Assembly: GCF_003334765.1 (NCBI RefSeq)
Contig: NZ_QOWT01000032.1
DNA length: 45,825 bases
Direction: 5' to 3' (one strand)
DNA from: Escherichia coli
GTDB lineage: Bacteria; Pseudomonadota; Gammaproteobacteria; Enterobacterales; Enterobacteriaceae
In this document: piece by piece, positions 9,683 to 45,825 of the stretch
Position numbering within the stretch: position 1 is the first letter of the stretch
Layout of the letters: the number at the start of each line of letters is the position of its first letter
Position numbers and translations under genes: made by a program
Notes under the pieces: model-generated
The model's database searches: none
Seen by the model: only the letters and a program-made list of their open reading frames with translations
What the model was told of the DNA's origin: nothing

Positions 9683-9964
9683 CATGACTCCTTGCTCATC
9701 GCATGAAGACTCCGAGAGTGAACCCCGTTAGAAAGGGTCACACGCATGCCCCAATAGAAATTTGTTTGAACACTTTCATCATACCATGTGAATGCACACA
9801 AAAACGGCGTAAAGAAAGGTTGCAAACATGTTAATAAAAACTCAAATTGATCCCACGTATATATTACGCCGCAAAATCCTTACAATAAACAGGTTTTTGT
9901 TGAAGCAAATTTGCATTTTTCGACGGTGATCAATTTATAGCTAAATTACCGCCTTTCAGCCAAT

Positions 9965-9978
9965 TTGATCGAGAACAA
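9965..9978. promoter_or_regulatory. Second FNR-like site TTGAT-CGAG-AACAA (9/10 match)
   Basis: ttgatcgagaacaa, about 50 bp from the perfect site. Confidence 0.4.
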
Positions 9979-10016
9979 TTTATCTCTTTTTGATGCCCAT
10001 TTCCAAGACTTATACA

Positions 10017-10030
10017 TTGATAAATATCAA
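10017..10030. promoter_or_regulatory. Perfect FNR/CRP-family palindrome TTGAT-AAAT-ATCAA
   Basis: ttgataaatatcaa read directly; matches FNR consensus TTGAT-N4-ATCAA 10/10. Confidence 0.6.
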
Positions 10031-10308
10031 TTCCTACAAATTATGTTAATCATGTTTCAATAAGGTAACTTTAGTGACATTTATGTTTAAAATGTGTGAG
10101 TTATAAGGCTGAAATTAGTTTCGGTTGGCAATTAAAGATAAAAAGAGACGAAGCAAAAACAGCACGGTTGACCTTAATTCTTTTTTTGGTCACTGGCTAA
10201 TACGACGCAGAGTTTCAGGATTACTAATAAAGGCATAAATCCACCCCGCCAATATTAACATTTAGTTAACTTATAATTATATTATAATTAACTCACCCAG
10301 GGTTATTA

Positions 10309-10341
10309 TTTTGTTAAAAATAAAGCCACATATACGTGGCT
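10309..10341 (-). terminator. Candidate rho-independent terminator of the mngAB transcript
   Basis: Hairpin agccac-atatac-gtggct (10324-10341) followed on the minus strand by TTATTTTTAAC. Confidence 0.45.
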
Positions 10342-10367
10342 TGAGAGTGAAGATAAACGCAAAATTA

Positions 10368-10466
10368 CCTGATGCGCTACGCTTGCCAGTGTCTACATCA
10401 TCTCTGCAATATATTGAATTTGCCTGCTTTTGTAGACCGAATAAAGCGTTCATGCCGTATCCGGCA
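10368..10466. repeat. Degenerate REP/BIME-like element downstream of mngB
   Basis: cctgatgcgctacgcttgcc ... gtagaccgaataaagcgttcatgccgtatccggca resembles REP Y and Z units. Confidence 0.5.
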
Positions 10467-25963: not shown

Positions 25964-26671
25964 GAATAACGCCCACATGCTGTTCTTATTATTCCCTGGG
26001 GACTACGGGCACAGAGGTTAACTTTCTGTTACCTGGAGACGTCGGGATTTCCTTCCTCCGGTCTGCTTGCGGGTCAGACAGCGTCCTTTCTATAACTGCG
26101 CGTCATGCAAAACACTGCTTCCAGATGCGAAAACGACACGTTACAACGCTGGGTGGCTCGGGATTGCAGGGTGTTCCGGAGACCTGGCGGCAGTATAGGC
26201 TGTTCACAAAATCATTACAATTAACCTACATATAGTTTGTCGGGTTTTATCCTGAACAGTGATCCAGGTCACGATAACAACATTTATTTAATTTTTAATC
26301 ATCTAATTTGACAATCATTCAACAAAGTTGTTACAAACATTACTAGGAAAAGCATATAATGCGTAAAAGTTATGAAGTCGGTATTTCACCTAAGATTAAC
26401 TTATGTAACAGTGTGGAAGTATTGACCAATTCATTCGGGACAGTTATTAGTGGTAGACAAGTTTAATAATTCGGATTGCTAAGTACTTGATTCGCCATTT
26501 ATTCGTCATCAATGGATCCTTTACCTGCAAGCGCCCAGAGCTCTGTACCCAGGTTTTCCCCTCTTTCACAGAGCGGCGAGCCAAATAAAAAACGGGTAAA
26601 GCCAGGTTGATGTGCGAAGGCAAATTTAAGTTCCGGCAGTCTTACGCAATAAGGCGCTAAGGAGACCTTAA
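25964..26671. promoter_or_regulatory. gltA-sdhC divergent promoter/regulatory region
   Basis: 708-bp AT-rich non-coding region between divergent gltA and sdhC; individual operator sites not resolved by eye. Confidence 0.75.
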
Positions 26672-27955
26672 ATGGCTGATACAAAAGCAAAACTCACCCT
26701 CAACGGGGATACAGCTGTTGAACTGGATGTGCTGAAAGGCACGCTGGGTCAAGATGTTATTGATATCCGTACTCTCGGTTCAAAAGGTGTGTTCACCTTT
26801 GACCCAGGCTTCACTTCAACCGCATCCTGCGAATCTAAAATTACTTTTATTGATGGTGATGAAGGTATTTTGCTGCACCGCGGTTTCCCGATCGATCAGC
26901 TGGCGACCGATTCTAACTACCTGGAAGTTTGTTACATCCTGCTGAATGGTGAAAAACCGACTCAGGAACAGTATGACGAATTTAAAACTACGGTGACCCG
27001 TCATACCATGATCCACGAGCAGATTACCCGTCTGTTCCATGCTTTCCGTCGCGACTCGCATCCAATGGCAGTCATGTGTGGTATTACCGGCGCGCTGGCG
27101 GCGTTCTATCACGACTCGCTGGATGTTAACAATCCTCGTCACCGTGAAATTGCCGCGTTCCGCCTGCTGTCGAAAATGCCGACCATGGCCGCGATGTGTT
27201 ACAAGTATTCCATTGGTCAGCCATTTGTTTACCCGCGCAACGATCTCTCCTACGCCGGTAACTTCCTGAATATGATGTTCTCCACGCCGTGCGAACCGTA
27301 TGAAGTTAATCCGATTCTGGAACGTGCTATGGACCGTATTCTGATCCTGCACGCTGACCATGAACAGAACGCCTCTACCTCCACCGTGCGTACCGCTGGC
27401 TCTTCGGGTGCGAACCCGTTTGCCTGTATCGCAGCAGGTATTGCTTCACTGTGGGGACCTGCGCACGGCGGTGCTAACGAAGCGGCGCTGAAAATGCTGG
27501 AAGAAATCAGCTCCGTTAAACACATTCCGGAATTTGTTCGTCGTGCGAAAGACAAAAATGATTCTTTCCGCCTGATGGGCTTCGGTCACCGCGTGTACAA
27601 AAATTACGACCCGCGCGCCACCGTAATGCGTGAAACCTGCCATGAAGTGCTGAAAGAGCTGGGCACGAAGGATGACCTGCTGGAAGTGGCTATGGAGCTG
27701 GAAAACATCGCGCTGAACGACCCGTACTTTATCGAGAAGAAACTGTACCCGAACGTCGATTTCTACTCTGGTATCATCCTGAAAGCGATGGGTATTCCGT
27801 CTTCCATGTTCACCGTCATTTTCGCAATGGCACGTACCGTTGGCTGGATCGCCCACTGGAGCGAAATGCACAGTGACGGTATGAAGATTGCCCGTCCGCG
27901 TCAGCTGTATACAGGATATGAAAAACGCGACTTTAAAAGCGATATCAAGCGTTAA
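26672..27955 (+). CDS. gltA: Citrate synthase (type II)
   Basis: 427-aa [39 protein letters not shown]... Confidence 0.97.
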
Positions 27956-27983
27956 TGGTTGATTGCTAAGTTGTAAATATTTT

Positions 27984-28016
27984 AACCCGCCGTTCATATG
28001 GCGGGTTGATTTTTAT
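27984..28016 (+). terminator. Rho-independent terminator of gltA
   Basis: Hairpin acccgcc-gttcatat-ggcgggt followed by tgattttta. Confidence 0.75.
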
Positions 28017-28344
28017 ATGCCTAAACACAAAAAATTGTAAAAATAAAATCCATTAACAGACCTATATAGATATTTAAAAAGAATAGAACAGCTCAAATTA
28101 TCAGCAACCCAATACTTTCAATTAAAAACTTCATGGTAGTCGCATTTATAACCCTATGAAAATGACGTCTATCTATACCCCCCTATATTTTATTCATCAT
28201 ACAACAAATTCATGATACCAATACTTTAGTTTTGCATTTAATAAAACTAACAATATTTTTAAGCAAAACTAAAAACTAGCAATAATCAAATACGATATTC
28301 TGGCGTAGCTATACCCCTATTCTATATCCTTAAAGGACTCTGTT

Positions 28345-28911
28345 ATGTTTAAAGGACAAAAAACATTGGCCGCACTGGCCGTATCTCTGCTGTTCACTGC
28401 ACCTGTTTATGCTGCTGATGAAGGTTCTGGCGAAATTCACTTTAAGGGGGAGGTTATTGAAGCACCTTGTGAAATTCATCCAGAAGATATTGATAAAAAC
28501 ATAGATCTTGGACAAGTCACGACAACCCATATAAACCGGGAGCATCATAGCAATAAAGTGGCCGTCGACATTCGCTTGATCAACTGTGATCTGCCTGCTT
28601 CTGACAACGGTAGCGGAATGCCGGTATCCAAAGTTGGCGTAACCTTCGATAGCACGGCTAAGACAACTGGTGCTACGCCTTTGTTGAGCAACACCAGTGC
28701 AGGCGAAGCAACTGGGGTCGGTGTACGACTGATGGACAAAAATGACGGTAACATCGTATTAGGTTCAGCCGCGCCAGATCTTGACCTGGATGCAAGCTCA
28801 TCAGAACAGACGCTGAACTTTTTCGCCTGGATGGAACAAATTGATAATGCAGTCGATGTCACGGCAGGTGAAGTAACCGCTAACGCAACCTACGTGCTGG
28901 ATTATAAATAA
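28345..28911 (+). CDS. ybgD: Fimbrial major subunit-like protein (chaperone-usher pilin)
   Basis: 188-aa ORF with signal peptide MFKGQKTLAALAVSLLFTAPVYA and pilin-like C-terminus; preceded by about 330 bp of very AT-rich DNA. Confidence 0.88.
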   Translation: MFKGQKTLAALAVSLLFTAPVYAADEGSGEIHFKGEVIEAPCEIHPEDIDKNIDLGQVTTTHINREHHSNKVAVDIRLINCDLPASDNGSGMPVSKVGVTFDSTAKTTGATPLLSNTSAGEATGVGVRLMDKNDGNIVLGSAAPDLDLDASSSEQTLNFFAWMEQIDNAVDVTAGEVTANATYVLDYK

Positions 28912-28961
28912 GTATTATTTTGGCGGCATCATCGCCGCCTTTCATAAAATATTTATCAGGT

Positions 28962-31418
28962 ATGGACACCGTGAATATTTATCGACTCTCTTTTGTATCC
29001 TGCCTGGTCATGGCGATGCCTTGCGCAATGGCGGTCGAATTCAATCTGAATGTTCTCGATAAATCAATGCGCGACCGCATTGATATTTCATTATTAAAGG
29101 AAAAAGGAGTCATTGCTCCCGGTGAATATTTTGTTAGCGTTGCGGTGAATAACAACAAAATCAGTAATGGGCAAAAAATTAACTGGCAAAAAAAGGGTGA
29201 CAAAACCATTCCATGCATCAATGATTCACTGGTCGATAAATTTGGTTTAAAACCAGATATCCGTCAGTCCTTGCCACAGATAGATCGGTGTATTGATTTC
29301 AGTTCCCGACCTGAAATGCTCTTCAATTTCGATCAAGCCAATCAGCAACTGAATATTAGTATTCCGCAAGCCTGGCTGGCGTGGCACTCAGAAAACTGGG
29401 CTCCCCCCTCTACATGGAAAGAAGGTGTTGCCGGTGTCCTGATGGATTACAACTTGTTTGCCAGCAGCTACCGCCCACAGGACGGCAGCAGCAGCACTAA
29501 CCTGAATGCCTACGGTACCGCCGGAATTAACGCCGGGGCATGGCGCTTACGCAGTGATTACCAGCTTAATAAGACCGATAGCGAAGATAACCATGACCAG
29601 TCAGGCGGAATATCGCGCACCTATCTTTTTCGTCCATTACCGCAATTAGGCTCTAAGTTAACCCTCGGCGAAACCGATTTCAGTTCCAATATTTTCGATG
29701 GTTTTTCTTATACCGGCGCGGCACTGGCGAGTGACGATCGAATGTTACCGTGGGAGCTGCGTGGCTACGCCCCACAAATTAGCGGTATTGCACAGACCAA
29801 TGCCACGGTGACGATCAGTCAATCAGGCCGCGTCATTTACCAGAAAAAAGTCCCGCCAGGCCCGTTTATTATTGATGACCTCAATCAGTCTGTTCAGGGC
29901 ACGCTGGATGTCAAAGTGACGGAAGAAGATGGTCGGGTGAACAATTTCCAGGTTTCGGCAGCATCGACGCCCTTCCTGACTCGCCAGGGACAGGTTCGCT
30001 ATAAATTGGCCGCGGGTCAGCCACGGCCTTCCATGTCACATCAAACTGAAAATGAAACCTTTTTTAGCAATGAAGTTTCCTGGGGGATGCTCTCAAACAC
30101 CTCGCTGTACGGCGGCCTGCTGATTTCTGATGATGACTACCATTCTGCCGCAATGGGTATCGGGCAAAATATGCTGTGGCTTGGCGCACTGTCCTTTGAT
30201 GTCACCTGGGCCAGTAGCCATTTTGATACTCAGCAGGACGAGCGGGGCTTAAGCTACCGTTTTAATTACAGCAAACAAGTGGATGCCACCAACAGCACGA
30301 TTTCGCTCGCCGCTTATCGCTTCTCAGATCGTCATTTTCACAGCTACGCCAACTATCTGGATCACAAATACAACGACAGCGATGCGCAGGACGAAAAACA
30401 GACGATCAGCTTATCCGTGGGCCAACCGATTACCCCACTAAACCTCAATCTTTACGCCAACCTGCTACATCAAACCTGGTGGAATGCAGACGCCTCCACG
30501 ACCGCCAACATCACAGCAGGTTTTAATGTTGATATTGGTGACTGGAGAGATATCTCGATTTCGACGTCATTCAATACGACCCACTACGAAGATAAAGATC
30601 GCGACAACCAGATTTATCTGTCGATTTCGCTCCCCTTCGGTAACGGTGGTCGGGTTGGCTATGACATGCAAAACAGTAGCCACAGCACCATACACCGCAT
30701 GTCGTGGAACGATACGCTGGATGAACGTAATAGCTGGGGCATGTCTGCCGGACTGCAATCCGATCGTCCGGACAATGGAGCCCAGGTGAGCGGTAACTAT
30801 CAGCACCTGAGTTCAGCGGGTGAGTGGGATATTTCTGGTACCTATGCCGCCAGTGATTACAGTTCCGTCAGCAGCAGCTGGAGCGGTTCTTTCACCGCAA
30901 CCCAATATGGTGCAGCATTTCATCGCCGCAGCTCCACCAATGAACCACGCCTGATGGTCAGCACCGATGGCGTGGCAGATATTCCGGTTCAGGGCAATCT
31001 CGACTACACCAACCATTTTGGCATTGCGGTGGTGCCGTTGATTTCCAGTTACCAGCCTTCCACCGTGGCGGTGAACATGAATGACTTACCCGACGGCGTA
31101 ACAGTTGCAGAAAACGTCATCAAGGAAACATGGATTGAAGGCGCGATAGGTTACAAATCACTGGCTTCCCGTTCCGGTAAAGACGTTAACGTCATCATAC
31201 GCAACGCCAGCGGTCAGTTCCCTCCCCTCGGTGCGGATATCCGCCAGGATGACAGCGGCATTAGCGTGGGTATGGTTGGCGAGGAAGGACATGCCTGGTT
31301 AAGCGGTGTCGCTGAAAATCAACTGTTTACCGTGGTCTGGGGTGAGCAAAGCTGCATTATTCATCTGCCAGAACGTCTGGAAGACACGACCAAACGCCTG
31401 ATTTTACCTTGTCATTAA
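28962..31418 (+). CDS. ybgQ: Fimbrial outer-membrane usher (start uncertain: ATG 28962 or GTG 28971)
   Basis: About 815-aa ORF, PapC/FimD-like, signal peptide ...NIYRLSFVSCLVMAMPCAMA. Confidence 0.9.
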   Translation: MDTVNIYRLSFVSCLVMAMPCAMAVEFNLNVLDKSMRDRIDISLLKEKGVIAPGEYFVSVAVNNNKISNGQKINWQKKGDKTIPCINDSLVDKFGLKPDIRQSLPQIDRCIDFSSRPEMLFNFDQANQQLNISIPQAWLAWHSENWAPPSTWKEGVAGVLMDYNLFASSYRPQDGSSSTNLNAYGTAGINAGAWRLRSDYQLNKTDSEDNHDQSGGISRTYLFRPLPQLGSKLTLGETDFSSNIFDGFSYTGAALASDDRMLPWELRGYAPQISGIAQTNATVTISQSGRVIYQKKVPPGPFIIDDLNQSVQGTLDVKVTEEDGRVNNFQVSAASTPFLTRQGQVRYKLAAGQPRPSMSHQTENETFFSNEVSWGMLSNTSLYGGLLISDDDYHSAAMGIGQNMLWLGALSFDVTWASSHFDTQQDERGLSYRFNYSKQVDATNSTISLAAYRFSDRHFHSYANYLDHKYNDSDAQDEKQTISLSVGQPITPLNLNLYANLLHQTWWNADASTTANITAGFNVDIGDWRDISISTSFNTTHYEDKDRDNQIYLSISLPFGNGGRVGYDMQNSSHSTIHRMSWNDTLDERNSWGMSAGLQSDRPDNGAQVSGNYQHLSSAGEWDISGTYAASDYSSVSSSWSGSFTATQYGAAFHRRSSTNEPRLMVSTDGVADIPVQGNLDYTNHFGIAVVPLISSYQPSTVAVNMNDLPDGVTVAENVIKETWIEGAIGYKSLASRSGKDVNVIIRNASGQFPPLGADIRQDDSGISVGMVGEEGHAWLSGVAENQLFTVVWGEQSCIIHLPERLEDTTKRLILPCH

Positions 31419-31432
31419 TTAAGGAAAAGAGA

Positions 31433-32161
31433 ATGACATTTATTAAAGGATTACCCTTAATGTTGTTAACCATCAGCTTGGGTTGCAATGCTGCGGTGCA
31501 ACCCGATCGCACACGCATTGTGTTTAACGCCAATGACAAAGCCACCAGCCTGCGTATCGAAAACCAAAGTGACAAACTGCCTTATCTTGCTTATTCCTGG
31601 ATAGAAAATGAAAAAGGGGAGAAAAGCGATGCTCTTCTGGTCGCTTTGCCCCCTATTCAACGTCTGGAACCGAAAGCGACATCGCAGGTGCGGGTTGTGA
31701 AACAAGCCTCAACCACACAATTACCTGGCGATCGCGAAACGCTATTTTTCTACAATATGCGCGAAATTCCTCCCGCTCCGGATAAAAGCAGCGACCATGC
31801 GATACTTCAGGTCGCTATTCAAAGTCGTATTAAATTGTTCTGGCGACCGGCTGCATTACGCAAGAAAGCAGGAGAAAAGGTCGAACTGCAGTTACAGGTC
31901 AGCCAGCAGGGCAACCAACTGACACTGAAAAATCCTACCGCGTATTATCTGACCATTGCCTATCTGGGGAGAAATGAAAAAGGCGTTCTCCCAGGCTTCA
32001 AAACCGTGATGGTTGCACCTTTTAGTACGGTCAACACAAACACCGGAAGTTATAGCGGCAGCCAGTTTTATCTCGGTTACATGGATGATTACGGCGCATT
32101 ACGCATGACGACGCTCAACTGCAGCGGACAATGCCGTTTACAAGCAGTGGAGGCGAAATGA
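31433..32161 (+). CDS. ybgP: Fimbrial periplasmic chaperone (PapD-like)
   Basis: 242 aa from [20 protein letters not shown]; start trimmed from the ORF. Confidence 0.9.
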
Positions 32162-33219
32162 GTGCTGGCAAGGGATTGTTGCTCGTCATCTGCCTGTTAT
32201 TTCTGCCGTTGAAGTCTGCAATGGCGCTGAACTGCTATTTTGGTACATCTGGTGGCGCAGTAGAAAAATCAGAAGCGATTCAACCGTTTGCTGTACCAGG
32301 CAATGCCAAACCCGGTGATAAGATCTGGGAATCTGACGATATTAAAATTCCCGTCTATTGTGACAACAATACCAACGGCAACTTTGAAAGCGAGCATGTC
32401 TACGCCTGGGTAAACCCCTATCCGGGGGTGCAGGATCGTTATTATCAACTCGGCGTGACATACAACGGTGTCGATTACGATGCCAGTCTGGGAAAAAGTC
32501 GCATCGACACTAACCAGTGTATCGACAGTAAGAACATTGATATTTATACCCCTGAGCAGATCATCGCGATGGGATGGCAGAACAAAATTTGCTCGGGCGA
32601 TCCCGCTAATATTCATATGTCGCGTACCTTTCTCGCTCGCATGCGGTTATACGTCAAAATACGAGAAATGCCGCCGCATGATTATCAAAGTACGCTTAGC
32701 GACTATATCGTCGTGCAATTTGACGGTGCCGGTAGCGTTAACGAAGACCCTACTGCCCAAAACCTGAAATATCATATTACTGGTCTGGAAAACATTCGCG
32801 TGCTGGATTGCAGCGTCAATTTTTCCATTTCACCGGAAACACAGGTGATTGATTTTGGTAAATTTAATTTGCTGGATATACGTCGCCACACAATGTCGAA
32901 AACGTTCAGTATTAAAACGACCAAGAGCCAAAACGATCAATGCACCGACGGATTTAAAGTCAGTTCCTCCTTTTATACCGAAGAAACGTTGGTTGAAGAA
33001 GATAAAGCATTGTTGATTGGTAATGGTCTGAAGCTACGTTTACTGGATGAAAACGCCTCGCCTTATACCTTCAATAAATATGCTGAATACGCCGATTTCA
33101 CCAGTGACATGTTGGTCTACGAAAAAACCTATACGGCTGAACTTTCGTCCATTCCAGGCACCCCCATCGAGGCTGGCCCCTTCGATACAGTGGTGCTTTT
33201 TAAGATTAACTATAACTGA
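32158..33219 (+). CDS. ybgO: Fimbrial-like protein, probable tip adhesin or minor subunit
   Basis: 353 aa from [23 protein letters not shown]; last gene of the operon. Confidence 0.85.
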
Positions 33220-33227
33220 TTTACCAT

Positions 33228-33263
33228 GATGCCCTTTGCCGCCGGAAAGGGCATCTCTTTCAG
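33228..33263 (+). terminator. Rho-independent terminator of the ybgDQPO operon
   Basis: Hairpin gatgcccttt-gccgccgg-aaagggcatc followed by tctttc. Confidence 0.65.
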
Positions 33264-33370
33264 AAAATTGCTGATTTTCCCCTTTTCCTTGATTGCTGTT
33301 ATTTTTTCCTGGCCCAGCTTTCTTTATGCTGTATCGATACACCAAAGAGAAAATAATGAGGGAGCGAAGG

Positions 33371-34417
33371 ATGCCAGTTTTGCAGTGGGGAATGTTATGT
33401 GTGCTATCACTTCTCCTTTCTATTGGTTTCCTCGCGGTACATCTCCCGGCGGCGCTATTACTTGGGCCGATGATCGCCGGGATCATCTTTAGTATGCGCG
33501 GAATTACTCTGCAACTTCCCCGCTCTGCTTTTCTCGCCGCCCAGGCCATTCTTGGCTGCATGATTGCGCAAAACCTCACTGGTTCGATTCTCACCACCCT
33601 GGCCGTCAACTGGCCGATCGTGCTTGCAATTTTACTGGTAACGCTGCTTTCCAGCGCCATTGTGGGTTGGTTATTGGTGCGCTATAGCTCATTGCCTGGA
33701 AATACCGGTGCCTGGGGCTCCTCTCCTGGCGGCGCGGCGGCAATGGTCGCTATGGCGCAAGATTACGGCGCAGATATTCGCCTGGTGGCGTTTATGCAAT
33801 ATCTGCGAGTGCTGTTCGTCGCGGGGGCCGCTGTTCTGGTCACCCGCATGATGCTGGGCGATAACGCTGAAGCGGTTAACCAGCATATCGTCTGGTTCCC
33901 GCCAGTGAGCATTAATCTCCTGCTTACTATTTTGCTCGCGGTCGTTGCCGGTACAGTGGGATGCCTGCTGCGTCTTCCTTCCGGCACGATGCTCATCCCG
34001 ATGCTGGCGGGCGCAGTGCTCCAGTCTGGTCAGCTCATCACCATCGAACTACCGGAATGGCTGCTGGCGATGGCGTATATGGCAATTGGCTGGCGGATTG
34101 GTCTTGGTTTCGATAAACAAATCTTACTGCGGGCACTACGCCCGCTACCGCAAATCCTGCTGTCGATTTTTGCTCTGCTGGCTATTTGTGCGGGTATGGC
34201 GTGGGGGCTGACCCGGTTTATGCACATTGATTTTATGACTGCCTACCTCGCCACCAGCCCCGGCGGGCTTGATACCGTGGCGGTCATCGCCGCAGGGAGC
34301 AATGCCGATATGGCGCTCATTATGGCGATGCAAACCCTACGCCTGTTCAGTATTTTGCTGACAGGGCCTGCCATTGCGCGGTTTATTTCAACCTATGCGC
34401 CGAAGCGGTCGGCCTAG
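33371..34417 (+). CDS. abrB: AbrB-family polytopic membrane protein (putative regulator/transporter)
   Basis: About 348-aa hydrophobic ORF; start chosen at [11 protein letters not shown]; 3' end overlaps nei by 4 bp. Confidence 0.85.
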
Positions 34418-35205
34418 TGCTGGCAGCCAGGGCACCAGTAAAACGGGCGAGATGACAGCGTGGTTTTCTCAATGATGCTGCCACAACGTTCGCACGGTTC
34501 GCCATCTCGATGAAAAACCTTAAAGCGAAACAGCGCCCCATGATGCTTATTCTCATCCACCTGCCCCCGCGTAGCGTAGGAAAATCGAGGAATCTCCAGT
34601 AACGCGTGTGCGAGTGCATCCAGTTGCGCCGCATTGAGATCTTTCGCTTTATGATTTCCAGTCAACCCAACCTGCCAGAGGATCTCCACCCGCAAATAAT
34701 TGCCAAGCCCAGCCAGAAACGCCTGATCGAGCAGTAATCCAGCAAACTGACAGTTACGAAAGCGCGGCGACAATAATCGTTCTTTCACCACCTCCGGCGT
34801 CAGATTCGGATCCAGCACATCGGGACCAACGCGTTGTAAAAACGGATGCGTGGTCAGTTGTTCCGGGGTCAACATCTCAATATCCGAGGCGCTATAAAGC
34901 AGAATGGTTTTGTCAGCCGTTTGCAGTTTTACCCGCAATACTCGCGTGGTCTGCGGCTCTTCGCCGGTATCAACCACGCGCCAGACGCCGTAAAGCTGAT
35001 TATGGCTGTAGAGCGTTAAGTCGTTGGAAAAATGAGTTAACAACGCCTTACCACGCGTTTCCACATGGGTAACGTGTTGACCGATAAGTTGTGATTGATA
35101 AGGTTTTAACTGCGGGAAGGCAAACCAGACATCAGTTAGTGGTTTGCCTTTGATCGCCGCCTCCAGGTTATCCGCTGCACGGCGGATCTCCGGGCCTTCA
35201 GGCAT
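34414..35205 (-). CDS. nei: Endonuclease VIII (DNA glycosylase/AP lyase)
   Basis: 263-aa ORF beginning MPEGPEIRR (catalytic Pro2/Glu3) with C-terminal zinc finger CERCG...CPGCQ. Confidence 0.96.
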
Positions 35206-42286: not shown

Positions 42287-43048
42287 CTATTCAAACGTGA
42301 AATCAATAAGCTCATCAGGGACATCGCAAACAATATGAAGACGGGTTTCTTCTCTGCCGTGACTCTTTTCACTAATTGCGTAACTGTCATGCTTGGGATT
42401 ATTTAATTCTTTCAGCGGAAATTTTTCCTCGAAGGCTTTATTTAGCCGCCCCTGGTTTCCTTTTACAGCGAATAAATAATCACCTCCCTGTTTTTGTATC
42501 TTCTCTGCAATATCTTTCTGGCAACCCATCGCATCAGTTGTGATGATTTTTCCTTTAATATCCAGCATGTTAAGAAGTTCAGGGATAGCTGTGATCTCAT
42601 TGGATTTCTTATCCGTCTTGATCTGTCCGATGACCAGACTGTGCATTGTTGAGAACGCACTAATGACATGAATCGCTCCCTTACGGCGACTCTTGTCATA
42701 AGAATGCCGGTGTATTTTTCCATCAATTGCGATGACGTCTTTATCATCTGAAGAATGGTAGTCAAGCATCCAGTTAATAAAGCTCTCATGAAATTTCGCA
42801 GGACAGATACAGGATACAACTCTGGCAATGGTATCGTGAACAGGAATACCATTTTCAAAATCACCATATTGCTTCAAAAAATCGGGATGTGTTTCCCCAA
42901 AATCCTCTATATCTTCCCAGCCTTCTGCACCAGAAATAACGGCACAAATAGTCAACAGTAGAATATCCGATAACTTATGTTCCATTTTCCAGGCTTGTCT
43001 GTAATCGGGGATAATAGAAATATGTCCCATCAATTTTTTAAGTTCCAT
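42287..43048 (-). mobile_element. ybfD: ISAs1-family (H-repeat) transposase, C-terminally truncated (253 of about 378 aa)
   Basis: [18 protein letters not shown]... ends ...LIDFTFE-stop, where the paralog in this window reads [10 protein letters not shown] (TAG in place of Trp codon), then diverges. Confidence 0.85.
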
Positions 43049-43155
43049 TTTGTTCTCCTTAATTATGTAAGGAGTATTTGATCATGTGTAAGCAATAAAA
43101 AACAGCTTTAGGTAATAAGGAATATCTCAATTTTTAAACATAAAATGCGAATTGT

Positions 43156-44278
43156 TTAGTACAAAAAGTGAACTTCTGATGATCTTTCCCTGTGTTTAAC
43201 GCAGCCTTCTTTCTTTTCCTCTTCACCCTTAATGTCTTTGCAATCTCTTAATAAATTCAGTGCCATCTTCTTTATTCCAGATATTATTTAGGCTGCGTTT
43301 CCTCTTCTTATCCGGCTGGCATCTTCATTCATTTTTACATCTAACACCCAATGAAGACTGTGCTCGATCAGCCAGTGCGCTCTGATAGCATGTGCAAATT
43401 CTTTAGCATCCATATCCTTTGATGAAATATAATATCGGATGCTTACACCTTCTGCTGATTTATCTTCTTTCTTCTGCCTGAATGACAATGCTACACAAAG
43501 CTTTTTTAATCCCTTCCATTCGAATTCAAAATCACAAAAGTTCAGGCGTTACGTTACTGACAATATGCAAACGTGTTTCTTTTCTTCCATGACTTATCTC
43601 CTGCGTACTAAACGAATCGCCTTTATAATTAGAAAACACATTTACAGGAAATTTTTCCTCGAATGCATGATGTAATTTCCCCTGATTGCCTTTTACTGCC
43701 AGAAGATAATCTGCTTTTTTATCTTTGATCTTCGAAGCGATATCTTTCTGACAGCCCATAGCATCAATGGTTATCAAATTTTTCTTTAAATACAGTAGGT
43801 TAAGCAACTCTGGAATGGCTGTAATCTCATTACTTTTGGCTTCCGTTTTCACCTGCCCCAGTACAACACCATTTTCGTTCGAGAATGCACTCACCATATG
43901 GATTGCTCCTTTTCTTTTTCCCTTATCAAAGGAGCCTCTTATGGTCTTTCCATCTATTGCTATAATTTCACCATCAGTGATTTCATGGCACTCCTGCATC
44001 CATTCAATAAACATCTTTTCAAAGGCCAAACTGTCAATGTTACTCACAACGCGTGCAATGGTGTCATCGACCGGAATGCCATTATCAAAATCACCATATT
44101 TCTTTAGCCATTCAAGTCTTTCATGTCCAAAATCTTCAATTTCCTGCCACTCATCGGCACCTGCAATTACTGCACATACGGTGAGAAACAAAATAGCAGA
44201 TAATTTATGTTTAACCTTTCCTTGTTGTCGTATATCAGGGGTCACTGAAATATAATCAAGCAAACTTTGAATACTCAC
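43156..44278 (-). pseudogene. ybfL: ISAs1-family (H-repeat) transposase pseudogene: frameshift near 43530 and in-frame TAA at 43288
   Basis: Three consecutive pieces (43532-44278; 43291-43488; 43156-43287) together cover a full-length transposase; about 65% identical to ybfD so not a recent duplicate; K-12 annotates pseudogene fragments ybfQ/ybfL here, assignment uncertain. Confidence 0.75.
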
Positions 44279-44351
44279 CTGGCGTCCTTTTTTATCTTTT
44301 TAGTTATTCCAAAGGTTAAATTTTGATCACCTGTAGGCGTTAAAGCAAAGA

Positions 44352-44381
44352 TGAAAATCGTGATTTACATCACAATTTTCA
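44352..44381. other. 13-bp inverted repeat with 4-bp spacer between ybfC and the H-repeat copy
   Basis: tgaaaatcgtgat-ttac-atcacaattttca (12/13 match). Confidence 0.4.
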
Positions 44382-44459
44382 TGATCTTGCCCTGCCCCGT
44401 CCCTTGCTCTCATGTCTTTCTGTATGTATTTTATATTTTTCTCTTTCTGGTGTTGTTCA

Positions 44460-44942
44460 TTATGACCATTTACCAATCCAGTCAAAAACTTCATTTTTCA
44501 AATTGTTATCATAATAATCAACATCATAATAGTCTCCATAATTAATTATTTTATAACTAGCCTTCTTGTTTTTATCACTAAAATACACCCGTTGTTTTGT
44601 AGCGCAGAACTCCATATTCTCCAGTTTACTAATGTTTTTTAATCGCACGCTATAAAGAATATCATTGAAAAAATTAAGATTTATATCAACCACTCCACAG
44701 TGCGTCCTGTAATTATTAACCATTATACTTATAAAATGACCATTCCCTCTACTAATTTTTTGGTCATTAATTATTTTATAAATAATATTTTTTTCAGAAA
44801 GATATATCTCAACGCTCTTTGGTGTTTTATGTCCATAAAATACGATGTCAGAATTTGAATTGTTATCAAACCCAAGGTAAACAACAAATAAACAAAGGGT
44901 AATTAAAAAAATGACAAGTTTGCCTCTAATAATTTGAAGCAT
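44460..44942 (-). CDS. ybfC: Small AT-rich membrane-anchored protein immediately downstream of the Rhs toxin tip; probable cognate immunity protein
   Basis: 160-aa ORF with N-terminal hydrophobic anchor [25 protein letters not shown]; 17-bp overlap with the Rhs ORF; immunity role is positional inference. Confidence 0.7.
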
Positions 44943-45825
44943 CTGAACTCCCTTGCTTTGCTTTTATTGGATTATCTGCTTTTATACCATCTAACCCGAA
45001 GAGTTGCCCAGTGTTATATTTTTCAATACATGCATCGCTACATTTGGCAGAAAAATCGCCACAAGCAATACCGACAGTGTTATTTTTAAGATCCATGATT
45101 CTTTCTTTAGCTGGCTGACCTTGTCTATCCCCTGCCGCCTCATGATTTTTACCTATCACGTCAGCTATTGTTGATCCAAATGTCTTAGTCATTCGACACA
45201 TCAAGTAACAATGTCTCATTGCATCGGCGGCCCCATTATGAGCTCCGCCAACAATAGCATCCATATCATAACCGAACTGGTAAGCACTGTTAGTAATGCT
45301 GTTTGCAGCAATCAATCCAGGTACACCAGATACGGCATAAATTAGTCCACCTGATGTCATATTCTCAATCGCATCTAACCCCATTGGGTCTATCACTTGT
45401 ATGGGATTCAACGGATACTGATACATATTCCATCCACCTCTCAACCCAATCGGGTCCGGGGTGATATACCGCCCCTGCAACGGATCGTAGTGCCGGTGAC
45501 GGTTATAGTACAGCCCCGACTCCTCATCATGCTGCTGCCCTGGCAGACGGTACGGCTGGTGCAGGTGATGCGGGTTCTCCTCATTAAGCTGGTTGCCCCA
45601 TTCATCATACTCCCCGCGCCACGCCGTATTGCCGTCTTCGCTGATGAGCGCCAGCGGCAGGCCCCGGTGGTCGCAGTGGTAAAAATGAACTTTTCGCGCC
45701 GGTGTGTATTCCGGCTCCACCTGTCTGGCCAGTTGCTCCACCGTCAGTCCGCACTGCGCAAGCCACGCCCGGCTTTCACTGCTCACGCGGTCTGCCCGGA
45801 TTTCTTCCTCCAGCCTGTCCAGCAG
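44926..45825 (-). CDS. ybfO: Orphan Rhs C-terminal fragment: end of Rhs core (PxxxxDPxGL) plus about 149-aa polymorphic toxin tip of unknown activity; 5' end beyond window
   Basis: ...[23 protein letters not shown]...[13 protein letters not shown] boundary motif at aa 124-137 of the ORF; GC-rich core gives way to AT-rich tip around 45375. Confidence 0.85.

Follow-up and report, generated by a model that had tools for sequence, protein, structure and literature searches.

The cryptic ybgDQPO chaperone-usher fimbrial operon of Escherichia coli: an AT-rich H-NS-bound leader, a two-domain adhesin and deeply diverged alleles

The ybgDQPO operon of E. coli K-12 (Korea et al. 2010; Wurpel et al. 2013, PMC3559732) is listed among the core-associated chaperone-usher fimbriae of this species, at the gltA site, and is described as silent under laboratory conditions (PMC3559732); Ybg has been assigned to the π clade (PMC3559732 Table S2 and PMC3032704 Table 5). 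According to papers citing Korea 2010 (PMC6033998, PMC8249706), artificial expression of Ybg promotes attachment to bladder cells and to abiotic surfaces. Induction of ybgD by BolA overproduction has been published (PMC4337573), higher ybg transcript levels have been reported in HUS-associated STEC (PMC6033998 / PMC8249706), and associations of ybg alleles with the type of host or disease have been described (PMC12547504, PMC8249706, PMC6033998). The locus is thus already catalogued, with its operon structure, clade, H-NS binding and cryptic-but-functional status all in print, and little is at stake in its description as such, since the receptor-binding domain of its adhesin has been solved as well. 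What the present analysis adds is a hairpin 3' of the pilin gene in every relative, deeply diverged E. coli alleles (dS above 1) on which purifying selection acts strongly, and a predominance of the yqi (ribB) site among the nearest non-Escherichia homologues.

The window analysed here, a stretch of 45,825 nucleotides from E. coli contig NZ_QOWT01000032.1, carries at positions 28345–33219 four intact, co-oriented + strand ORFs with 100% identity to the annotated ybgD-ybgQ-ybgP-ybgO of many E. coli genomes, and its neighbouring genes (gltA upstream, abrB and nei downstream) are those of the known locus. This operon is ybgDQPO, one of several cryptic chaperone-usher fimbrial loci in K-12-type E. 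coli strains and a member of the π (P-pilus-like) clade; it is the same locus with the same four genes as in K-12, with no difference. At least 80% of the ybg region is present in 4154 of 5426 complete genomes. The preliminary description had proposed a four-gene chaperone-usher fimbrial operon, and the Pfam and NCBIfam matches of the intact genes confirm these roles; adaptor, terminator and regulator genes are absent from the operon. The features of the locus are as follows.

27982..28009, + strand: intrinsic terminator of gltA, a 12-bp stem followed by TTTTTATATG; upstream boundary, outside the operon
28010..28344, + strand: AT-rich leader and regulatory region of ybgD, 28% G+C, published as an H-NS-bound 'promoter island'
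28022..28049, + strand: candidate sigma-70 promoter TAAACA-16-TAAAAT from a promoter scan; predicted, not mapped
28345..28911, + strand: ybgD, major pilin, 188 aa (NCBIfam fimbrial major-subunit models)
28922..28939, + strand: GC-rich pilin-usher hairpin, GGCGGC-ATCATC-GCCGCC then TTTCAT (dG -16 kcal/mol, z = -3.4)
28962..31418, + strand: ybgQ, outer-membrane usher, 818 aa from the RefSeq start (PapC_N, Usher, PapC_C)
31433..32161, + strand: ybgP, periplasmic chaperone, 242 aa (PapD_N, PF00345, and PapD_C, PF02753)
32158..33219, + strand: ybgO, two-domain tip adhesin, 353 aa (pilin-domain match, AlphaFold model, crystal entries)
about residues 1–23 of YbgO: signal peptide
32227..32808, + strand: receptor-binding domain of YbgO, residues 24–217
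32809..33216, + strand: pilin domain of YbgO, residues 218–353
33228..33255, + strand: operon-end hairpin (dG -19.8 kcal/mol, z = -3.65; stability equalled by none of 200 shuffles)

The alignment of YbgD with FimA and PapA takes in both the donor strand GEIHFKGEVIEAPC at the N-terminus and the C-terminal Tyr, and its gene is the most variable of the operon (74–75% nucleotide identity between alleles). The longest ybgQ ORF begins at a TTG at 28920, upstream of the RefSeq start at 28962; the usher YbgQ comprises the domains PF13954, PF00577 (E = 6e-189) and PF13953, scores 522 bits against PapC versus 267 against FimD, and finds its best NCBIfam matches in StdB, the PRK15284 usher subfamily and PRK15273. 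Among proteins of solved structure the chaperone YbgP is closest to PapD (177 bits, versus 110 for FimC), with an alignment that spans residues 8–233 and a conserved N-terminal DRTR motif. As judged from these sequence scores, usher and chaperone place Ybg with the PapC/PapD-type systems, which supports the π-clade affinity. The gene order, in which the usher gene precedes that of the chaperone, had initially been regarded as unusual; it turned out to be the normal π-clade order of subunit, usher, chaperone and adhesin, common to ygiL-yqiGHI and to every homologous operon fetched (the usher gene also comes before the chaperone gene in seven related loci). Since all relatives have the same order, it was rejected as a sign of rearrangement.

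The last gene of the operon encodes a two-domain fimbrial tip adhesin. In YbgO the Fimbrial domain match of Pfam and NCBIfam is limited to residues 218–353. The AlphaFold model (pLDDT 87) matches known folds mainly via this pilin domain, and the N-terminal part was therefore modelled separately; it forms a separate receptor-binding β-sandwich domain without a donor strand at its N-terminus. Crystal entries exist for exactly this receptor-binding domain (PDB 9RX0/9RWW, residues 24–217). The structure prediction called for in the preliminary description yielded two domains and not a single pilin domain, and its suggestion of a two-domain tip adhesin has been substantiated. Its closest known counterparts include the receptor-binding domains of other two-domain fimbrial adhesins, namely LpfD, UclD, FimH, GafD/F17G, MrkD and Abp1D. 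A literature search for the publication behind PDB 9RX0/9RWW/9RWU/9RWV/9RWE returned chance string matches only, Ybg is absent from the glycan-array paper PMC8545135, and no ligand of YbgO is named in any of the searchable papers, to which Korea 2010 itself does not belong. Thus, of the earlier statement that receptor and inducing conditions are unknown, the first part holds for the searchable papers, while adhesion on expression and induction by BolA have in fact been published. Identification of the YbgO receptor and of the natural inducing signal would extend by one more case what is charted of adhesin specificities in E. coli, and would bear on the reported associations of alleles with host or disease.

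The region upstream of ybgD had been described as about 330 bp of extremely AT-rich DNA, and the composition analysis bears this out: the leader (28020–28344, 325 bp) contains 28.0% G+C, compared to 50.5% in the window and 48.0% in the operon, and only 0.54% of all 325-bp windows equal it in AT-richness. The whole gltA-ybgD spacer (27956–28344, 389 bp) contains 29.3% G+C and has the gltA terminator at its beginning. An alignment of four E. coli alleles shows this terminator to be conserved; the leader is only 53–76% identical between E. coli alleles. The further claim that such a leader is typical of H-NS-silenced operons finds support in published ChIP-chip H-NS occupancy (PMC3661553): the leader corresponds to promoter island 751980_413 ybgD/gltA, which is H-NS-bound in every one of the ChIP-chip data sets under comparison and which GIST, Nakamura and Lawrence all mark as foreign (PMC3661553). 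A passage of PMC3559732, citing Korea 2010, states more generally that 'many' cryptic fimbriae are H-NS-repressed. The high-affinity H-NS motif TCGATAAATT has no match within 2 mismatches. The promoter of ybgD is predicted from sequence at 28022–28049, and RpoD genomic SELEX data list the same hexamers, TAAACA-16-TAAAAT, for ybgD, together with an HNS flag (PMC3946193); promoter-like sites are no more numerous in the leader region than in shuffled sequence. Rfam gave no match up to E = 1 in 26000–34500, leader included. Two modes of phase-variable control were considered and rejected. A Pap-like Dam/Lrp switch is not indicated, as GATC is absent from the 389-bp spacer (0 versus 1.7 expected) and papI/papB-like genes are lacking; nor is a fimS-like invertible element, as the leader has only short repeats and no long terminal inverted repeats. 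The best of these, an 11-nt perfect inverted repeat (28225–28235 / 28263–28273), is not kept in other alleles and is therefore taken as a chance occurrence in AT-rich DNA.

Two stable hairpins follow genes of the operon. A hairpin of differing sequence occupies the same pilin-usher position as that at 28922–28939 in 10 of 10 related operons examined. To judge from other fimbrial operons, the ybg hairpin probably keeps the ratio of pilin to usher high, either as an attenuator or by stabilising the mRNA. Likewise, the adhesin gene is followed by a hairpin in all relatives examined. Does the operon end at a clean terminator, as had been proposed? The strong hairpin (-19.8 kcal/mol) supports this, but its U-tract is weak: the tail at 33256–33263 (TCTTTCAG) contains only 4 T in 8, fails the criterion of the terminator scan, and the hairpin at 33228–33255 was accordingly not flagged. 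Because a good U-tract is missing, read-through into abrB is possible.

Comparison of E. coli ybg alleles revealed that their synonymous sites are saturated (dS 1.2–2.1), as opposed to dS of 0.05–0.19 in the flanking genes, with the variation lying chiefly in the pilin gene and in the leader. Between these deeply diverged alleles dN/dS is 0.03–0.13 in all four ybg genes and 0.03–0.05 in the receptor-binding domain of YbgO. Given this allele structure, caution is warranted with SNP associations mapped against K-12, which may reflect replacement of a whole allele and not point mutation. Disruption of the locus is frequent in other strains: the ybgQ usher gene of O157:H7 has an internal stop, in strain EcN_Sk the locus is deleted down to a 3' ybgO stub, ybgO of Shigella flexneri is a pseudogene (PMC6854044), and ybg has been described as 'not intact in many strains' (PMC3559732). 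It is therefore dispensable in some lineages. Could Ybg then be a decaying relic, transcriptionally dead and making no useful fibre in nature, which persists because loss is slow? Apart from these broken copies, its laboratory silence (PMC3559732) and the slightly better growth of MG1655 upon deletion of ybg, as given in a passage of PMC8174762, would fit such an explanation. Nonetheless, we regard it as very improbable: all four ORFs are intact in the window, a dN/dS of 0.03–0.13 over saturated synonymous sites requires long-term selection for function, and the adhesion on forced expression and the higher transcript in HUS-associated STEC, as described in PMC6033998 and PMC8249706, speak against a dead locus. 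Even more improbable is that ybg mainly assembles subunits of other operons and not its own fibre, as might be suggested by the proposal that in S. flexneri a broken fimD may be made good by ybgQ together with its chaperone (PMC6854044), because purifying selection maintains the operon's own pilin and adhesin genes alongside those of the usher and chaperone, every relative has the four genes as a set, and the ybgO ATG overlaps the ybgP stop (ATGA), which points to coupled expression.

The reading that we prefer, and hold with high confidence, namely a functional but silenced operon that makes its own adhesive fibre, can be put in terms of the Pap and Fim systems, on which the following scheme is modelled. 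YbgD and YbgO would be exported to the periplasm and capped there by the PapD-like YbgP through donor-strand complementation. The YbgP-YbgO complex would reach the PapC-like usher YbgQ first, which would place YbgO at the tip, and the shaft would then grow as YbgD subunits are joined on through donor-strand exchange; this order of assembly is suggested by analogy with Pap and Fim. Residues 24–217 of YbgO would then bind a receptor on a host or another surface. H-NS on the 28% G+C leader would silence expression in the laboratory, the hairpin 3' of ybgD would probably keep the pilin transcript above those of the usher, chaperone and adhesin, and the terminal hairpin would stop the transcript ahead of abrB. 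For H-NS occupancy (PMC3661553) and for adhesion on expression (PMC6033998, PMC8249706) the scheme draws on the published literature. A more ambitious version, which we put forward tentatively and consider rather doubtful, is that Ybg is in active use in nature: the several very old allele classes in E. coli, and the strong constraint on the receptor-binding domain, would fit antigenic diversification of the shaft by imported alleles around a conserved receptor specificity common to the YqiI family. If true, this would make the Ybg locus more than a laboratory curiosity.

Has the operon been acquired horizontally, as the preliminary description also held? The foreign flags of its promoter island, the alleles with dS above 1 beside flanks with dS of 0.05–0.19, and the location of the nearest named non-Escherichia relatives at another chromosomal site argue for it. 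On the other hand, coding G+C (48.0%, versus 50.5% in the window) is near the genome average, ybg is core-associated, and the operon is gltA-adjacent outside Escherichia as well: the closest non-Escherichia locus among those fetched, in an Enterobacteriaceae metagenome-assembled genome, lies beside a gltA that is only 85% identical to that of E. coli. A recent horizontal acquisition is thus only partly supported. The leaders of homologous operons at the other site contain 27–36% G+C.

Among the described systems, the ygiL-yqiGHI operon of E. coli (Yqi, also 'Ygi'), a member of the same π clade, has the same four-gene layout, in which an adhesin of about 350 aa comes after the pilin, usher and chaperone, and it too possesses an AT-rich leader (26.8% G+C) and hairpins after the pilin and adhesin genes. 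The receptor-binding domains of Yqi and Ybg constitute one family, and PDB 9RWU matches the yqi-site adhesin. The two operons differ in sequence, with 37–44% protein identity, and in location, ygiL-yqiGHI being situated at zupT-ribB; moreover, Ybg is without a reported in vivo role comparable to that of Yqi. The ribB (yqi)-site operons of Citrobacter, Salmonella enterica and Enterobacter hormaechei share the Ybg-like gene order and AT-rich leaders, and they are found at the yqi site, not beside gltA. Their proteins (adhesin 60–62%, usher 56–65%, chaperone 53–64% identical to Ybg) are closer to Ybg than those of E. coli's own yqi-site operon, and because of this Ybg looks, from sequence comparison, like a copy from the ribB-site lineage that was relocated or imported. 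Finally, the P pili (pap) resemble Ybg in the usher gene preceding the chaperone gene, in the two-domain tip adhesin, and in providing, with PapC and PapD, the counterparts most like its usher and chaperone.

The window, whose genes run tRNA genes, tol-pal, cyd, mng, suc, sdh, gltA, ybg, abrB, nei, pxp, dtpD, phr and ybfD/rhs remnants, is a segment of the K-12-type E. coli chromosome. The region 28020–33263 matches many complete E. coli genomes at 100% identity; in these its genes are annotated as ybgD, ybgQ, ybgP and ybgO, and the operon is a previously catalogued and partly characterised one. Its features are as follows:

27982–28009, + strand, terminator of gltA at the start of the gltA-ybgD spacer (terminator scan)
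28022–28049, + strand, predicted promoter-like site TAAACA-16-TAAAAT, directly after the gltA terminator
28345–28911, + strand, ybgD, co-oriented ORF
28922–28939, + strand, GC-rich ybgD-ybgQ hairpin (dG -16 kcal/mol, z = -3.4)
28962–31418, + strand, ybgQ, co-oriented ORF (RefSeq start; longest ORF from TTG 28920)
31433–32161, + strand, ybgP, co-oriented ORF
32158–33219, + strand, ybgO, co-oriented ORF
33228–33255, + strand, terminal hairpin, 9 nt past the ybgO stop (dG -19.8 kcal/mol, z = -3.65)

The ybgO start codon overlaps the stop codon of ybgP (ATGA). Profile searches matched YbgD to fimbrial major-subunit models and identified PapC_N, Usher and PapC_C domains in the YbgQ usher and PapD_N and PapD_C domains in the YbgP chaperone; YbgD can be aligned to FimA and PapA, and the alignment takes in the donor strand GEIHFKGEVIEAPC. 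A preliminary description, made from the sequence alone, had proposed a four-gene chaperone-usher fimbrial operon, which is borne out by the ORFs, the annotation identity and the profile matches: the observation is confirmed and its interpretation is essentially right.

YbgO is a two-domain adhesin, as its size had led the preliminary description to suppose. The profile search confined the Fimbrial domain match to residues 218–353, with no NCBIfam matches to YbgO. The AlphaFold model, built from an alignment of 34 homologues, is confident (pLDDT 87.2) and predicts an N-terminal β-rich domain separate from the C-terminal pilin domain; the fold matches of the full-length model comprise both two-domain adhesins and pilins (PapG-II, FimH, LpfD, CupB6, PapA). 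The structural check called for in the preliminary description is thus positive, and others have already made it by experiment, solving the N-terminal part: a Protein Data Bank sequence search identified 9RX0 and 9RWW as YbgO residues 24–217 (window 32227–32808; ~98% identity). Related receptor-binding domains among the PDB sequences are 9RWU/9RWV and 9RWE. Over 188 aligned residues 9RWU is identical to a protein whose gene lies at the zupT-ribB (yqi) site, which makes it a YqiI-type adhesin; 9RWE is a third, more distant member (≤39% identity to any homologue collected). The fold library ending 8 April 2026 contains none of the five, and no paper describing them was found in the literature searched.

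The leader (28020–28344, 325 bp) has 28.0% G+C, versus 50.5% in the window and 48.0% in the operon, and equally AT-rich 325-bp windows make up 0.54% of all. From this composition the preliminary description had suggested silencing by H-NS, which agrees with published data, because the whole gltA-ybgD spacer corresponds to the 'promoter island' 751980_413 (ybgD/gltA), bound by H-NS in every ChIP-chip study compared (PMC3661553), and because a genomic SELEX study of RpoD assigned the same promoter hexamers to ybgD with an H-NS flag (PMC3946193). The leader contains no GATC sites, no repeats of the invertible-element type and no Rfam matches, and nothing seen in its sequence points to phase variation of the Pap or Fim type. 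A perfect inverted repeat of 11 nt is present (28225–28235 / 28263–28273, TTTAGTTTTGC / GCAAAACTAAA, 27 nt apart); it is not kept in other E. coli alleles and is therefore probably due to chance in AT-rich DNA. Other strongly AT-rich stretches in the window, with 325-bp windows down to 25–31% G+C, are 9738–10380, upstream of cydA, and 42837–43361 and 44190–45112, within the ybfD/ybfQ transposase remnants and the ybfC / rhs C-terminal tip region. Upstream of gltA, in the divergent regulatory region that it shares with sdhC and that is moderately AT-rich, lies a 35-aa ORF (26359–26466), annotated as a hypothetical protein and assigned to Pfam YbgU in comparison locus L015.

Attenuator or stabiliser elements are common after fimbrial major-subunit genes, and the ybgD-ybgQ hairpin, which is added here to the preliminary account, looks like a conserved element of this kind. 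A hairpin occurs at the pilin-usher junction in 10/10 related operons examined (the window, L002, L003, L004, L007, L008, L009, L011, L012 and L014), with a stem sequence that differs in most of them. The 'clean terminator' at the operon end is upheld only as to the strength of the hairpin: the tail that follows, TCTTTCAG, is a poor U-tract, and the site is absent from those reported by the terminator scan. Transcription may to some extent read through into abrB (start 33371).

As to function, forced ybg expression increased adherence to bladder cells and abiotic surfaces, according to Korea et al. 2010 as cited in PMC6033998 and PMC8249706; the same study, as cited in PMC3559732, has H-NS repressing many cryptic K-12 fimbriae. 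The ybgD transcript rises on BolA overproduction (PMC4337573), and Ybg gene expression is higher in HUS-associated STEC (PMC6033998). Ybg has been described as core-associated but in many strains not intact, and as carried mainly by commensal and diarrhoeagenic strains (PMC3559732). No paper within the literature searched names a receptor for YbgO.

Within E. coli the ybg locus is a mosaic. Comparison of window 27956–33219 with O157:H7 (L002) and two other alleles (L003, L004) revealed flanking genes 97–100% identical between strains, ybgD 74–75% and the leader 53–76%; the whole O157:H7 operon is 74–80% identical to that of the window. Pairwise Nei-Gojobori estimates gave dS of 1.2–2.1 inside the operon, saturated and hence unreliable, versus 0.05–0.19 in gltA and abrB, and dN/dS of 0.03–0.13 in all four ybg genes (0.03–0.05 in the receptor-binding domain). 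Judging from these estimates, the alleles appear to be old, to have arrived by recombination and to have stayed functional. SNP-based association studies with a K-12 reference may thus be reading ybg allele replacement. The O157:H7 annotation lists the usher gene (L002 4129–6588) as a pseudogene, interrupted by an internal stop, alongside intact genes for pilin, chaperone and adhesin. In strain EcN_Sk the operon is deleted down to the last ~390 bp of ybgO (L005 4998–5393), 92% identical to the window; its flanks match K-12-type sequence (sdhCD, gltA and pxpA 100%, nei 99.9%), but the remnant itself derives from another ybg allele.

A metagenome-assembled genome of Enterobacteriaceae (L011), with a gltA 85% identical to that of E. 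coli, carries a Ybg-type operon (63–75% protein identity) between gltA and nei, without abrB. Among the loci fetched, the nearest other relatives outside Escherichia are the ribB (yqi)-site operons of Citrobacter, Salmonella and Enterobacter (46–65% protein identity), and the leaders of the ribB/yqi-site and L011 operons are all AT-rich (27–36% G+C). The proposed horizontal acquisition is partly supported, in that GIST, Nakamura and Lawrence all mark the spacer as foreign (PMC3661553) and the alleles look imported, but a single recent event would be too simple an account, given the allele divergence, the sites of the relatives and the gltA-nei position in L011.

The gene order is not unusual, contrary to the preliminary description. 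YbgQ scores 522 bits against PapC versus 267 against FimD, YbgP 177 bits against PapD versus 110 against FimC, and two surveys assign Ybg to the pi clade, with P, Pix, Yfc, Yqi and Yqi-like fimbriae (PMC3559732 Table S2; PMC3032704 Table 5). In every homologous operon fetched, among them Yqi (ygiL-yqiGHI) of E. coli and those of Enterobacter, Salmonella, Citrobacter and the metagenome-assembled genome, the same four genes follow one another as pilin-usher-chaperone-adhesin. The E. coli Yqi and Ybg proteins share 37–44% identity; the ribB-site adhesins of the other three genera (L007, L009, L012) are 60–62% identical to that of Ybg, whereas the E. coli yqi-site adhesin is 37% identical.
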